A DNA stretch of 64,000 nt, taken from NCBI GenBank assembly GCA_963696385.1, contig CAVOKF010000006.1, positions 128,001 through 192,000 on the forward strand, written 5' to 3'. Origin of the DNA: an uncultured delta proteobacterium. GTDB lineage: Bacteria > Myxococcota_A > Polyangia > Polyangiales > Polyangiaceae. The notes below the pieces were generated by a model, which was given only the letters and a program-made list of their open reading frames with translations, did not search any database and was not told where the DNA came from. The position numbers and the translations under genes are program-made. Shown here in pieces: positions 8,174 to 24,250 of the stretch; the stretch's first letter is position 1, and every line of letters starts with the position of its first letter.

Positions 8174-9787
<1,614 letters not shown>

Positions 9788-10169: not shown

Positions 10170-10890
10170 CTGCGCACGCCGTAGGGCGGCCGCACGCAAG
10201 AAGGCGACGACGATAGGTGGAGTCGCCCCAGCAGCGCCGCGAGCTCGAACTAAAAGAGCGTTGCGAGGAAGAAAGGGTGTCCTGCAAGCTCGATCGCGCG
10301 TAGGTCGCCGTGTTTGTCGATGGCGGAAAAACCGACGTCCAGTCGCTCTAGTACCTCGATTCCGCGGAATGGAAGGGTCGTTTTCCGCGATATTCCCGAC
10401 GGGATCGGGTGGTCTCACCCCTCCGTTTCATGGAATCGGGGTACTAGCGCCTCGCGGTACTTCGGATTCACACCGAACGCGCAATGGTACCTCTCGCGAA
10501 TCGTCTCGCGCTCGTAGATCGAAGCCAAGCGCGAGCTGAGGAGGCGCTGGACCTCACGCTCGTCTTCGCGGAACGCGCACGTGAGACGATGGATGACGGG
10601 ATCCTCGGCGCCCGGGCTCGATTCTTCGTGATCGGCGGATGCCATGCCTGCGACGTTCCGCGCGATCTCGATCAAGGCATGCTGGAACCCGCCGCACGTG
10701 CCGACTGCGATCGCCTTGCCCGGAATACGCATGCCGACGAACGGGAGGCGCGTCGCGCGTAGCGAAACGCGACGAGGGCGCCCTGGCACACGGGCCGCCT
10801 TGGGACGCACCAGATCCCGTTGAAGCCGTTGAACTCATCTCCCGCACCCCCCCCCGCCGCAAGCGCTGCTGTCGGAGCCACACGTGCGCA
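10170..10890 (-). pseudogene. CTP-synthase C-terminal-like glutamine amidotransferase pseudogene split by MITE-A
   Basis: GIWCVP..ALVAFRYAR, GTCGGFQHALIE, YHCAFGVNPKYREAL | ERLDVGFSAIDKHGDLRAIELAGHPFFLATLF*; frameshifts and an internal stop. Confidence 0.8.
10348..10447 (+). mobile_element. MITE-A copy 1 (96 bp period, CTAGTACCTCGATTCC...GGAATCGGGGTACTAG)
   Basis: Terminal IRs; removing it restores the flanking reading frame; five copies in the window. Confidence 0.9.
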
Positions 10891-16858: not shown

Positions 16859-18805
16859 GTGCCGGAAACCGCTGCGACTTCTCCCAGGCCGTCTCCCCGA
16901 AAACCTTCCGGCGACGCTGCGAAGCCTCCGTACGCGTCGCTCTTGCGATGGGTCCTTCTGGCGCTGTTTCTCGCGGGGGGCTGGGCCTATCAAATCCACG
17001 ACGCAAAGGAAGAAGCCGTACCCGAGATCCGATACAGCGACGTCTACGCGCTGCTCGACTCCAGCAAAGTCGATTCGGTCACCCTGAGAGGCCTTCAGAT
17101 CCGCGGGAAGCTGAAGGACGCCGAGAAGGTCGATGGCCAATCGGTCACCACGTTTCGCTCGCTTCTGCCCGCGGTGGAGGACCGGGCCTTCCTGCCGTTG
17201 CTTCGCGAAAAGGGAGTTGCCGTCACGGTGAGGAGCGAAGAGCAGACCCCGCTGGTCCGCATTCTTACGGCCGTTCTCCCTTGGGTCCTCATCCTCGGGG
17301 CGTGGGTCTGGATGTCGCGTCAGGCCGCGGGCGCCATGGCGGGTGGACCGATCGGGCGGATGCTCACGGGCCGGTCCACCCGCGTGGATCCCGCCGCGCG
17401 GGTGCAGGTGAAGTTCGACGACGTGGCGGGCCTGAAGAGCGCGAAGCGCGACCTCAGTGAGATCGTCGACTTCCTGAAGGCTCCCGCTGACTTTCGCCGG
17501 TTGGGTGGAAAGGTGCCGCACGGCGTCCTGCTCGTAGGACCGCCGGGAACGGGCAAGACGCTGCTCGCGCGAGCGGTCGCCGGAGAGGCGGGCGTTCCGT
17601 TTTTCTCGGTGACCGGCTCCGAATTCATCGAGCTTTTCGTGGGTATGGGCGCCAAACGTGTCCGTGACCTCTTCGAGCAGGCCAAGCAGGTGTCGCCCGC
17701 AATCGTCTTCATCGACGAGATTGATGCCGTGGGTCGATCGCGAGGCGCTGGATTGGGCGGAGGCAACGACGAGCGCGAGCAGACTCTGAACCAGCTCCTG
17801 TCCGAGATGGATGGCTTCTCCCGCAACGAACTGACGATCGTCCTTGCGGCCACCAACCGGCCAGATGTCCTCGATCCGGCTCTGTTGCGACCGGGCCGTT
17901 TTGACCGACGCGTGATCGTCGACCGACCGGAGCTGGCCGCTCGCACGTCGATCCTCGCCGTGCACACGCGGGACAAGCCCCTCGCCCCTGACGTGGACCT
18001 CGGGGTCGTTGCAGCGATGACTGCGGGATTCTCCGGCGCGGATCTTGCCAACCTGGCCAACGAGGCCGCGTTGGGGGCGACACGGCGCAAGGCCGACGCG
18101 ATCCAGGCCAGCGATTTTGCCGCCGCCTACGACAAGATCGTGCTCGGCGATCCTCGCGAGGCCAAGCTCGACAAAGTCGAGCGCGAGCGTGTGGCCATCC
18201 ACGAGTCGGGCCACGCCGTGGCCGCCTTCTTCGAGCGGCTGGCAGAGCCGCCGGCCCGCGTAAGCATCATCCCGCGCGGAATGGCGCTCGGGGCCACGCA
18301 GCAGACCCCTGGAGTGGATCGGCACCTGTTGTCGCAGCCCGAACTCGAAGCGAGACTTCGGGTTCTCATGGGTGGATACGCGGCGGAATCGCTCGTGCTC
18401 GGCTCCGTCTCCTCCGGAGCCGCCGACGACCTGCGCAAGGCGACGGAGATTGCGTTCGAGATGGTCGGTCACTACGGCATGAGCGAACTGCTGGGGCCGG
18501 TCTTCTACGAGCACCGGACCTCGCAGCCGTTTCTGGGGCAGCAGATTGCCCTCGAGGGAACAACGAGCGACGCGACTGTGCACACCATCGAGCAGGAGAC
18601 CGGTAGCCTGCTGAACGAGGCTCTGCGTACGACACGCAACGTCCTATCGACGCACCGGTCCGCCCTCGATGCGCTCATCGCCGCGCTTCTTGCGCACGAG
18701 ACACTCGAAAAGGACGAGTTGACCCGGTGCTTGAGTGCGGCGTCTTTGCCGGAGGCCGGTGCGCCCTCCGGATTGTCGGGGGCAGGCCCGACGCAACTCG
18801 CATAG
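16859..18805 (+). CDS. ftsH: ATP-dependent zinc metalloprotease FtsH (start uncertain)
   Basis: Two TM segments, [18 protein letters not shown] motif, HESGH. Confidence 0.93.
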
Positions 18806-18834
18806 CCTCCAGGCGTGCCTTGCCGCGCTCGGTC

Positions 18835-19197
18835 CGCCCCGATCCATGGCCGTGAACGACGAGTGCATCGGACGCACCTACGCGGCGACGCGAAGAGGGG
18901 ACCCACGCCCCGATCCATGGCCGTGAACGACGAGTGCATCGGACGCACCTACGCGGCGACGCGAAGAGGGGACTCACGCCCCGATCCACGGCCGTGAACG
19001 ACGAGTGCATCGGACGCACCTACGCGGCGACGCGAAGAGGGGACCCACGCCCCGATCCATGGCCGTGAACGACGAGTGCATCGGACGCACCTACGCGGCG
19101 ACGCGAAGAGGGGACCCACGCCCCGATCCATGGCCGTGAACGACGAGTGCATCGGACGCACCTACGCGGCGACGCGAAGAGGGGACCCACGCCCCGA
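18835..19197. repeat. Five near-identical 71 bp tandem repeats
   Basis: GATCCA(T/C)GG recurs at 18841, 18912, 18983, 19054 and 19125. Confidence 0.95.
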
Positions 19198-19217
19198 AGC
19201 CATCCTGCGGGACCCGC

Positions 19218-19400
19218 TCGGCGGTCACGGCAGGGTTCGATGCTTCAGATCGGATTTGGAGGAGGTGTCTCGAATCGGTCGTGCGGCCGTCGTCGCATGC
19301 TGACCGAGCTTGTCGGCGGTCACGGCAGGGTTCGATGCTTCGAGATCGGATCTGGAGGAGGTGTCTGGAATCGCTCGTGCGATCGGATGCTGACCGAGCT
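19218..19400. repeat. Two imperfect ~90-95 bp tandem repeats
   Basis: TCGGCGGTCACGGCAGGGTTCGATGCTTC...ATGCTGACCGAGCT occurs twice. Confidence 0.85.
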
Positions 19401-20059: not shown

Positions 20060-20516
20060 TCCTTCTGCCGCGCTTAGCGGGCGCGCCGACGCCGCTGCAC
20101 GGCGCCGGTGGCGAAACGCTCTACGATCATTGTAACGGGGTAGCGTCCTCGACGCGCACGCATTTTCCGAGCGCGGGGGACCGCCGTGGCGACAACGTAT
20201 CCAAAGGGAAGACGACCGACATGGCGCGATTCAAAACTTCCGCACATTTGGTTTCCTGGGCGGGGCGCTGCCCTCGCGCCGAGGAAAGCGCCGGCAGACG
20301 ACGCTCGACTCGCATTCGCCGCGGGGCTCCGTGGCTCATGACCACCCTCGTGCAGTGCGCCTGGGCAGCCATTCGCACCAAGGACTCTTAACCTGCGCGC
20401 CCAGTTTCATCGCCTCAAGTCCCGCGTTGGGCTCATGAAGGCGATCGTCGCCGTAGCCCCCCTCGATGCTCACAGCCGCGTACCACGTGCTCACAACTGG
20501 CAGCGAATACAAGGAC

Positions 20517-20627
20517 CTAGTGCACGTGCGCGAGGTAGGGCCAAGCATACTCGCGCAAAGATCAGCGCGCTGGCCAGACGGATCGAGCTCGTTGATAGTG
20601 GATGGCATCTGGCGCACGGTGCACTAG
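20517..20627 (+). mobile_element. MITE-B copy 1
   Basis: CTAGTGCAC...GTGCACTAG; near-identical to 21999-22110. Confidence 0.85.
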
Positions 20628-20723
20628 TACCTCGATTCCGCGGAATGGAAGGGTCGTTTTCCGCGATATTCCCGACGGGATCGGGTGGTCTCACCCCTCC
20701 GTTTCATGGAATCGGGGTACTAG
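20624..20723 (+). mobile_element. MITE-A copy 2
   Basis: Matches 10348-10447. Confidence 0.9.
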
Positions 20724-21906
20724 TTCCGCTGGGCAGAAATTTGGCCAGATTCCGCGTTTCACGATAGCGGAGCGGCATGATCAATTACGCGGCGTTGGCG
20801 CACCGTCGGCACGGCGGGCGCCCGACGGTGCCGCTTGTGCTCTCGGCCGAAGAGCGGGCGAGGGTGGAGGCGGCCATGCGCCCTGCGACGGCCGAGCAAC
20901 GGATCGTACGTCGGGCGACGGCCCTACTGATGATGGCGGACGCGGTGCCGGGGACGGACATCGCCCGCGCGGTGGGGGTGCACATTCGCACGGTGCAGGA
21001 GTGGCGTCGGCGCTTTGATGCCGAGCATCCGGCCGACACGCTTGCGGACGCCCCGCGCTCGGGACGCCCGCCTCTCTCTCTCGGACGCCGACGCCGCGCG
21101 CATCGAGGCCGAGGCGTGCCGTCCACCCGAAGATGTAGGCGTGCCGGTCACGCACTGGTCGGAATCGTTGCTCGGCGAGCACGTTCGCCAGCAGGGGATC
21201 GAGGTCAGCGACCGCACCGTGGGGCGCATCCTGCACGACGCCGACCTTCAACCTCATCGCCAGAAGATGTACCTGACGTCGCACGACGAGGAGTTTCGCT
21301 GAGAAGCGCGATGACGTGTTGCGCCTCTACTACGAGACGCCCACCGACGAGCGCATTATCTGCCTCGATGAGAAGACGGGCATCCAGGCGATCGAGCGCC
21401 GCTACGCGGACATCCCCATGCAGTCGGGGCAGCCGGTGCGCCGCGAGTTCGAATACATCCGTCACGGCACGCTCTGCTGGATGGGTGCATTCGACGTGCG
21501 TCGCGGTCGCCCCTTCGGCTTCGCCTCCTGCGACCACAACAGCGATACCTTCATCGACCTGCTCGATCTCGTGAACCTCTGCTACCCGGCCGGGCGCGGG
21601 CACTTCGTGATGGACAACCTGTCCGCCCACGACACGCCCGACGTCAACGAGTGGCTCGACGAGCACCCGCGTTGGACCCGACACTTCACGCCCAAGCACG
21701 CATCGTGGCTCAACCAGATCGAGTGCTGGTTCTCCATCCTTCAGCGACGCGTGATCGCTCGAGGTTCCTTCTCCTCGACCGAGCAACTCGCCGAGCGGCT
21801 CAACGCCTACGTCCTCTGGCACCTGCGCACTGACCAGCCCTTCCACTGGTCCTACCGCCCCAAGTCGTGGGGCGAATCCGGTGGGACTTCCGCCGAGCGG
21901 AACTAG
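20720..21906 (+). mobile_element. IS630-family element; transposase 20777..21906 with two frameshifts (~21075 CT run, ~21295 T run)
   Basis: IR TAGTTCCGCT.GGC.GAA; HTH 'VQEWRRRF..LADAPRSGRP'; DDE 'CLDEKTGIQ', 'VMDNLSAH', 'SWLNQIECWF'. Confidence 0.9.
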
Positions 21907-22002
21907 TACCTCGATTCCGCGGAATGGAAGGGTCGTTTTCCGCGATATTCCCGACGGGATCGGGTGGTCTCACCCCTCCGTTTCATGGAATCGGGGTACT
22001 AG
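21903..22002 (+). mobile_element. MITE-A copy 3
   Basis: Matches copies 1 and 2. Confidence 0.9.
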
Positions 22003-22110
22003 TGCACCGTGCGCGAGGTAGGGCCAAGCATACTCGCGCAAAGATCAGCGCGCTGGCCAGACGGATCGAGCTCGTTGATAGTTGATGGCATCTGGCGCAC
22101 GGTGCACTAG
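21999..22110 (+). mobile_element. MITE-B copy 2
   Basis: CTAGTGCACCGTGCGC...GCGCACGGTGCACTAG. Confidence 0.85.
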
Positions 22111-22368
22111 GCGCTGCACACTTCGATCGACGAGACCACGCCAAGCTCGCCAAACGGCTCGTACTACGCCTCGAAGGCCTGGGCCTCAAGGTCTCCGTCC
22201 CCCAAGCGGCGTAGGCCTCGGGTTTCTTGCTAGGCGCGCCAGCCGGCGGGCGCTGGACGGCGCGGTGCGGGAAAAGACAGTCAGCCGTGCGCGTCTCGTT
22301 ACTTGAAGGACTCGCGGGCAGGTTTTTTTTCATCCTTAATTGGCCATTCCGCGCGTCGCCTAAACTAA

Positions 22369-22468
22369 GGCGCCGTCCGTAAATAATGGAACGGATTGGG
22401 CGCGCGCCGATAGACCTTCCTCGATACTGGAGAGCGAGATTACAGGTCCGTAATTCATGGACGACGCC
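22369..22468 (+). mobile_element. MITE-C copy 1 (100 bp, TAA duplication, IS5-like ends)
   Basis: IR GGCGCCGTCCGTAAATAA vs (rc) GGCGTCGTCCATGAATTA; TAA on both sides. Confidence 0.8.
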
Positions 22469-22522
22469 TAAGCGCAACGCGGGGCCAATCCGCAGCGAGA
22501 CGCAGACCTGCTTGGCGTCATC

Positions 22523-22701
22523 TGAGGTGGACCCCTTCGTTCGGACCAAAATGGTCGGCAGTTAAGGTAGGGCCTGCTCTCGTTCTTTCTCTCGCTCGCG
22601 GGATATCTAAAGTCAAATCGTAGTTGTTCTCGTCGTGAATTTCGTATCGGTCGTCGGTCGTCCACATAGACGTCCACGTGTCTGGTGGGAATTGAGGGGG
22701 G
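22523..22701. mobile_element. Solo end fragment of the IS3 at 3755
   Basis: Near-identical to about 3755-3928. Confidence 0.88.
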
Positions 22702-24168: not shown

Positions 24169-24250
24169 AATGCCCCGGCGCCGTGCCGACGCGATAAATG
24201 CCCCGGCGCTGCACCGACGCGATAAATGCCCCGGCGCTGTGCCGACGCGA
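24169..24250. repeat. Three 28 bp direct repeats just upstream of the porin RBS
   Basis: AATGCCCCGGCGC.G..CCGACGCGA at 24169, 24197 and 24225. Confidence 0.85.

Follow-up and report, generated by a model that had tools for sequence, protein, structure and literature searches.

Five IS630-type elements are stacked at a single CTAG in the window (the whole stretch of 64,000 nucleotides analyzed here), and this stack was confirmed to be real and as described. The CTAGs lie at 20517, 20624, 20720, 21903, 21999, and 22107, with spacings of 107, 96, 1183, 96, and 108, and the units between them are, in order, MITE-B, MITE-A, an IS630 element (IS-C), MITE-A, and MITE-B. The initial annotation had given the six positions and a B-A-IS630-A-B mirror order of direct repeats, which proved exact, and its statement that every element starts (TA)GT and finishes AC(TA) held for all five units. 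The two MITE-A copies are direct repeats with no difference, and the two MITE-B copies are direct repeats with two differences, a C absent after 20524 in the first copy and G at 20600 versus T at 22083. The four inner joints consist of exactly one CTAG each, a single target duplication per joint. The five elements represent three end classes, and each class has its own IS630 transposase in the genome of the window (G000). The features are as follows.

20221..20516, + strand: IS110 transposase relic, upstream part; 5'-truncated, with in-frame stop and frameshifts; PF02371 E 1.8e-13
20517..20520, no strand: left CTAG, the half from the original target; C, TA, and the opening G of B1
20520..20624, + strand: MITE-B copy 1 (B1); 105 bp; one C short at the left end; fold z -2.6
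20627..20720, + strand: MITE-A copy 1 (A1); 94 bp; ends match IS-A; fold z -4.1
20723..21903, + strand: IS630 family element IS-C; 1181 bp; terminal inverted repeats begin GTTCCGCT
21071..21082, + strand: CT dinucleotide run at the IS-C orfA/orfB frame break; one C missing in the window copy
21906..21999, + strand: MITE-A copy 2 (A2); sequence and orientation of copy 1; joint to IS-C spanned by contig L038
22002..22107, + strand: MITE-B copy 2 (B2); 106 bp; left end intact; orientation of B1; fold z -4.6
22107..22110, no strand: right CTAG; final C of B2, then TA and the G of the original target
22111..22216, + strand: IS110 relic, C-terminal codons 3' of the target to the stop, from homologue alignment; rejoined frame

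The stack interrupts a relic of an IS110 transposase, whose homology begins near 20215 and of which only a 3' remnant is left; its match to NF033542 (E 2.1e-10) was below the cut-off. Joined at one CTAG, the flanks translate as ...EYKDL-GAAHFDRRD...VPQAA-stop, and the rejoined C-terminus is collinear with all four aligned IS110 homologues, none of which has an insert; the Leu codon at the target is not CTA in these four uninterrupted homologues. It had been proposed that collapsing the stack restores the IS110 frame exactly. This was found for the C-terminal stretch only, because the relic is 5'-truncated with its own stop and frameshifts, which are also present in contigs of other runs. Since only this 3' remnant with further lesions was hit, the insertion site is neutral. 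The runs with this stretch carry the labels soil, peat, wetland, or simply metagenome, and the closest named record of IS-C (99% protein identity) is a Polyangiaceae assembly. Other repeats in the window are a tandem array of about six copies with a 71-bp period directly after ftsH, followed by a 95-bp two-copy repeat (18764-19268); a repeated region to the right of the IS110 relic, where depth is raised and loose ends are numerous in four runs (22365-22700); and a 28-bp unit in three tandem copies upstream of two isochorismatase-family genes (24169-24250).

The joints were compared with contigs of seven distinct runs of the 22 listed (X1, X4, X9, X10, X11, X12, and X14; X1 may be the sample of origin) and with the metagenome contig L038. 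As a result, every stack joint has some support outside this assembly, and no compared contig spans all five elements. The flank/B1 joint is present in X1, X9, X10, X11, X12, and L038, the B1/A1 joint in an X1 contig with 29 letters beyond, the IS/A2 joint in an X4 contig with 29 letters and also in L038, and the B2/flank joint in X4, X9, X10, X12, and X14. Support for the A2/B2 joint comes from one X4 contig that reaches 28 letters into A, short of the 31-letter bar, and the X4 contig covering 21975-22341 has zero differences from the window. L038 follows the order flank-B1-A1-IS-A2, is 99.7% identical there and has variants of its own within the IS, and beyond A2 it enters a flank absent from G000, not B2. 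This change of flank reflects either a jump by the assembler across MITE-A or a true rearrangement at the outer end of A2.

It is highly improbable that the stack is partly a misassembly of repeats. What would speak for it is that the full stack is without a spanning contig and L038 departs after A2, that A2/B2 depends on the one contig below the bar, and that this assembly has indel errors within IS-C; against it stand the coverage of four of the five elements by L038 with its own IS variants, the finding of both B variants in other runs (B1 in X11 and X1, B2 in X4 and X14), and the start of X1 and X14 contigs at 20525, which is the branch point expected if B1 and B2 both exist. Two lesions are seen in the window copy of IS-C, a missing C after 21070 and an extra T at 21300. 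The C is present in all four runs compared and in L038, and the extra T is absent in three of the four runs and in L038, with no difference listed there for the fourth run, suggesting that both lesions are likely assembly errors. A repaired transposase, which had been proposed for a mobilization test, would thus be unnecessary, because assembly error is the likely source of the lesions, and the orfA/orfB break is itself conserved across the family.

The empty allele was not seen in the contigs of the seven runs, and contigs cannot show absence. Contigs of X10 and X12, from two studies, read flank-B-flank. These were rejected as proof of an ancestral allele, for they are chimeric for the B markers (B1 left marker with B2 right marker) and shallow, at about 3-fold depth; the same pattern would also be expected from graph simplification or from recombination between B1 and B2.

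IS-C has PF13358 (E 2.4e-25) and N-terminal HTH_29/23/32 domains, and its copy in L038 scored 174 bits with NF033545 against a cut-off of 100. The three IS630 transposases IS-A, IS-B, and IS-C all exceed this cut-off, with a mutual identity of 31-39%. In the terminal inverted repeats of IS-C 18/26 terminal bases match, and 11-14/14 do so in relatives. Two other copies of IS-C, one full and one partial, are found in G000 (C3:492768 and C4:80325), both with no MITE-A alongside. Extra flanks and a 4-7-fold depth of IS-C in other runs, together with short CTAG spacers next to element ends in relatives, would be indirect signs of cut-and-paste activity. For the IS-C transposase, the stop codon (21904-21906) is formed by the duplicated TA and the next G, outside the element; the C3 copy, with CCAG at its end, reads through.

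In 36 of the 39 scored copies, the orfA/orfB break of the IS-C group falls on a CT dinucleotide run with an offset of +2 (= -1), the exceptions being two copies one CT unit short, which are in frame, and one copy without a C. Scoring covered 38 of 43 loci (window 21071-21082, L038, and L142-L183). The break lies on neither an A run nor a classic slippery heptamer, and codons would stay cognate after a 2-base slip on the CT run. For IS630, frameshifting has been described (PMC5009743); a CT-run signal was not found in the open-access literature searched, and this frame break is possibly more novel than the stack.

MITE-A and MITE-B are short (94-106 bp) and non-coding, with terminal inverted repeats and a hairpin (fold z -2.6 to -4.6). 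MITE-A has 30 matches in the genome, 21 of them identical. Its ends match those of IS-A at 18-23 of 26 bases and those of the central IS-C at only 9-11 of 26, and MITE-A was therefore rejected as a MITE of IS-C. IS-A is an IS630 with seven copies in the genome, six of them at 99.9-100% over their length, and has been active recently. The ends of B2 match those of IS-B at 17-20 of 26 bases, versus 7-13 for other IS630 ends; this match is weaker than that of IS-A to MITE-A, and IS-B itself is an IS630 with a single copy (G000:C7:1384606-1385738). MITE-B is present in G000 as the two close copies and four diverged ones (82-88% identical, with worn ends), with no other copy above 88% in the genome, which is 96% complete. 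A solo MITE-B stands at a CTAG in the relative G003, and the window itself also has a solo MITE-A between CTAGs (10348-10447) and a 119-bp MITE with B-type ends and a CTAG on each side (9665-9787).

The CTAG targeting, TA duplication, and rebuilding of CTAG at both ends claimed for these elements were borne out, with CTAG on both sides in 25/30 MITE-A copies and 7/7 IS-A copies. All three classes begin with G and finish with C, so with the TA duplicated, each insertion leaves a full CTAG at both ends. The empty paralogous site C6:83214 has one CTAG, compared with the A insertion at C2:93729, and copies whose left side is TTAG and right side CTAG (C5:1470740 and L156) are consistent with TA duplication and G...C ends. 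Both ends were also found at CTAG in 30/42 related IS-C-family loci; the search required CTAG, and the remaining 12 are cut, damaged, or different. T was significantly enriched next to CTAG at free A/IS-A ends (16/59 vs 10.7% of 5370 background half-sites, p 3.5e-4), while A next to CTAG was not enriched at solo A/IS-A ends; in related IS-C copies, which are not independent, T was found in 18/46. Because every element starts with GT, each insertion supplies the favoured T, and the stack joints (ACTAGT) were shown statistically to be somewhat better targets than average. A preference for long palindromic targets was rejected, as solo A/IS-A targets did not favour them (10/31 vs 827/2781). Among other elements, L186 (G000 C2:32386-34264) is an IS1634 family element lying between CTAGs in 4/4 copies shown, and at L175 an IS1634-type end abuts an IS-C-type end.

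CTAG occurs 2781 times in the 6.94-Mb genome. Seven element-element joints were observed, four of them within this stack, and about 0.7 would be expected by chance for 45 elements and 2740 sites. In a simulation of 45 elements on 2740 regenerating sites, neither a five-stack nor at least seven junctions appeared (0/4000 runs each) without preference, and with 1000 usable sites and a 2.5-fold end preference a five-stack was obtained in 1.1% of runs. Five elements at one site are thus far beyond random choice of CTAG. Regeneration permits stacking and does not by itself make this pile likely, and sequence preference alone is a thin explanation, because even at 2.5-fold and 1000 sites the five-stack came in just 1.1% of runs. 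With only about 1000 usable sites, the three joints found elsewhere in the genome would not reach significance (p 0.2). They include IS-B/IS-A at C7:1385735 and IS-A/A at C4:1125625, the latter inverted end-to-end. Stacking of different families, which the initial annotation had seen in this locus, was upheld, with three IS630 transposase systems at one site, and the genome-wide check of MITE-A that it proposed gave a CTAG preference, with 5/30 copies abutting another element.

Regarding how the pile grew, we hold with slightly better than even confidence that growth ran from the outside in (B, A, IS630), with same-family pairs doubled locally and not via a second long-range jump. Such doubling may occur when an element jumps over from the replicated sister, or when copying slips from one CTAG to the other across a hairpin. 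MITE-B would have entered the IS110 CTAG first and then doubled in place, either from the sister chromosome or by slippage between its two CTAGs around the hairpin; MITE-A would next have entered the B/B joint and doubled likewise, and IS-C would have come last, into the A/A joint. Lying in neutral DNA, the pile would not have been removed, and no function is proposed for it. B is placed before A and A before IS-C because the outer pair has diverged without a donor, whereas multiplication continues in the inner families: two sites differ within the B pair and other B copies are at 82-88%, and 21/30 A copies are identical. Since no other B copy exceeds 88% in the genome, the pairs are more likely of local origin. 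The direct A-A dimer at C6:48508-48703 is an intermediate of the type needed for doubling, and the relative G163 has CTAG-jointed blocks in tandem duplicate (L123, L129, and L132); the flank-B-flank contigs of X10 and X12 are weak support for the order. On the other side, the inverted IS-A/A joint cannot arise by slippage, the exit of L038 from A2 into a flank foreign to G000 speaks against outside-in growth, and no B-B, B-A-B, or B-A-A-B intermediate was seen in the contigs examined. Even random independent insertions would give the mirror order with a prior of about 1 in 60 (2/30 orders, two orientations), which is not decisive, and this order is only partly explained. The proposal that the stack records its insertion history stood as far as a readable order of events is concerned. 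An insertion of its own is likely for each of the three classes and doubtful for the second B and the second A; five independent long-range insertions are doubtful, since a B donor above 88% is missing.

In the model of the initial annotation, which is unlikely though not remote, five separate cut-and-paste insertions would have gone into a hot spot that regenerates, with the mirror order due to luck. The mixed joints elsewhere favour them, as do a paralogous pair of sites that each took one A in opposite orientations (C6:48508 and C7:94790), and the family left end, intact in B2 and not in B1 or the single-B contigs, fits a separate donor. Moreover, 10/30 related IS630 copies (in 4/8 assemblies) adjoin an element end or a short CTAG spacer. 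The missing B donor in a 96% complete genome, the rarity of a five-stack in simulations (0-1.1%), and the direct orientation of both pairs and of the other A-A dimer (3/3) argue the opposite. Alternatively, an incoming element may attack both CTAGs flanking a MITE already in place, one on each strand, which would turn the entire MITE into a target duplication of 100 bp; B would become B-A-B and then A would become A-IS-A. Three events only would explain the mirror order, the direct orientation, and the missing B donor, the same-unit test picks up the 92-bp flanking repeat in the window, and one-ended strand transfer is the commonest in vitro product of ISY100 (PMC2170065). But the same unit stands on both sides in 0/30 related IS630 copies, MITE-abutting ones included, and the three other joints in this genome are one-sided, which makes this whole-MITE copying very unlikely. 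A broader form, in which the transpososome cuts both MITE-bracketing CTAGs, repeated rounds give mirror nests, and such piles seed BIME-like mosaics in Polyangiaceae, is quite improbable.

It is likewise very doubtful that A-IS630-A formed elsewhere and moved as one composite, with outer MITE-A ends and the IS-A transposase, into the B/B joint. IS-A has been recently active, the relative G006 has a 1427-bp block of MITE, spacers, and IS at two loci (L058 and L030) that share 99.9% identity over the block and have unrelated flanks, and L038 has A-IS-A followed by foreign flank, which fits such a move; L038 may, however, be an assembler hop across a 100-bp repeat, and both other IS-C copies in G000 are without A. 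As no second A-IS-A was found there, a self-moving composite in G000 was rejected. The earlier suggestion that A-IS-A or B..B might move as a composite was thus not supported, with no second copy of either in G000 and L038 ambiguous.

The stack was not found in the 60 relatives searched. Relatives with CTAG-jointed piles were chosen for many joints, so no frequency follows from them, and two unpublished genomes (G027 and G157) enter only the tallies of relatives. In G006, MITE, spacer, and IS blocks occur in several combinations; G008 carries a two-part MITE in two states, empty and interrupted at its inner CTAG by an IS630; two IS630s abut in G029; and in G163, MITEs with A-, B-, and C-type ends form mosaics in which whole blocks are tandemly repeated. 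At L123-L132 of G163 the arrays are BIME-like mosaics, in which MITEs of three end classes are joined at CTAG and blocks have expanded in tandem. Of 42 IS-C-family loci examined, 30 had both ends found (8 assemblies, 25/30 from three). An element end or short spacer adjoins 10/30 of these copies, and the same unit stands on both sides of none (0/30), in a test that does detect the 92-bp repeat of the window. This result argues against routine duplication of a resident MITE, and a general X-IS-X pattern was rejected. A 12-base joint pattern matched in 158 of 301 genomes of the order, most with 1-3 matches that are mostly noise; the five richest genomes besides G006 were inspected and no prevalence is claimed.

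CTAG repeats 5-7 bases apart were also seen beside element ends (L026, L029, L030, L058, L060, and L063; G000 C4:80979 and C5:537372) and are suggestive of excision footprints. Genome-wide, CTAG pairs at 5-7 bases number 11, 10, and 10, versus mostly 1-5 at other distances; control words also peak at 9-10, so the excess is weak. Ku is present in 4/4 genomes checked, making end-joining repair possible.

The mechanism by which such a target renews itself has been described before. An insertion that preserves its target while making a new one leads to dimers, and bacterial dimers have been cited (10.1101/158386); P-element ends restore a 14-bp target motif, and CTAG is a listed IS630 target motif (PMC2577343, with Table 1). 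TA duplication, with the TA outside the element, was shown biochemically for ISY100 (PMC2170065), and IS630-linked MITEs share ends with their IS630 partner (PMC2229807). The self-regenerating target put forward for this locus holds here as a mechanism, and as an idea it is not new (10.1101/158386, PMC2577343). Like IS630 and the MITEs it mobilizes (IS630 of Shigella sonnei, ISY100, RUP, and ERIC/MITEPlu5), the present elements have a DDE_3 transposase, TA duplication, the CTAG motif, and MITE ends in common with an IS630 partner; unlike in those systems, three transposase specificities meet at one site in a five-element mirror stack. The tandem dimers of Drosophila P, hobo, and R1 are alike in that the target is kept, a new one is made, and the joint is one target duplication, whereas in flies the same element is involved; in the present stack, elements of different kinds are nested, and the element ends provide part of the target, the C and G of CTAG. 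The P element also rebuilds its preferred target with its terminal bases, but it belongs to another transposase superfamily with an 8-bp duplication, and multi-family stacks are not mentioned in the portion of that paper available.

Composite bacterial repeats (BIME, NIME, and BOX) have been summarised (PMC3049150), and the CTAG-jointed arrays of G163 and G006 resemble them as mosaics of short palindromic units with tandem block expansion. Unlike those repeats, the array units of the relatives have IS630-type ends and CTAG joints, and the stack in the window is a single locus, not a repeat family: the composite is not repeated in G000, which has one stack, and is repeated only in G163 and G006. 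The open-access literature searched yielded no multi-family IS630 stack at CTAG, and the available passages of PMC6267812, PMC11544213, and PMC6053426 contain nothing on stacks. The elements are new, and the locus is an unusually neat multi-family case of a published mechanism.

These results present a clean natural case in which three IS630 specificities converge on one self-renewing site, the principle being known and the value moderate. For annotation they carry a warning that MITE-IS-MITE blocks need not be composite transposons. Whole-MITE duplication, if true, would be a new outcome of DDE strand transfer. The relatives show later stages, with mosaic arrays, block duplication, and a moved composite, and together they offer a testable route from MITEs to composite bacterial repeats.
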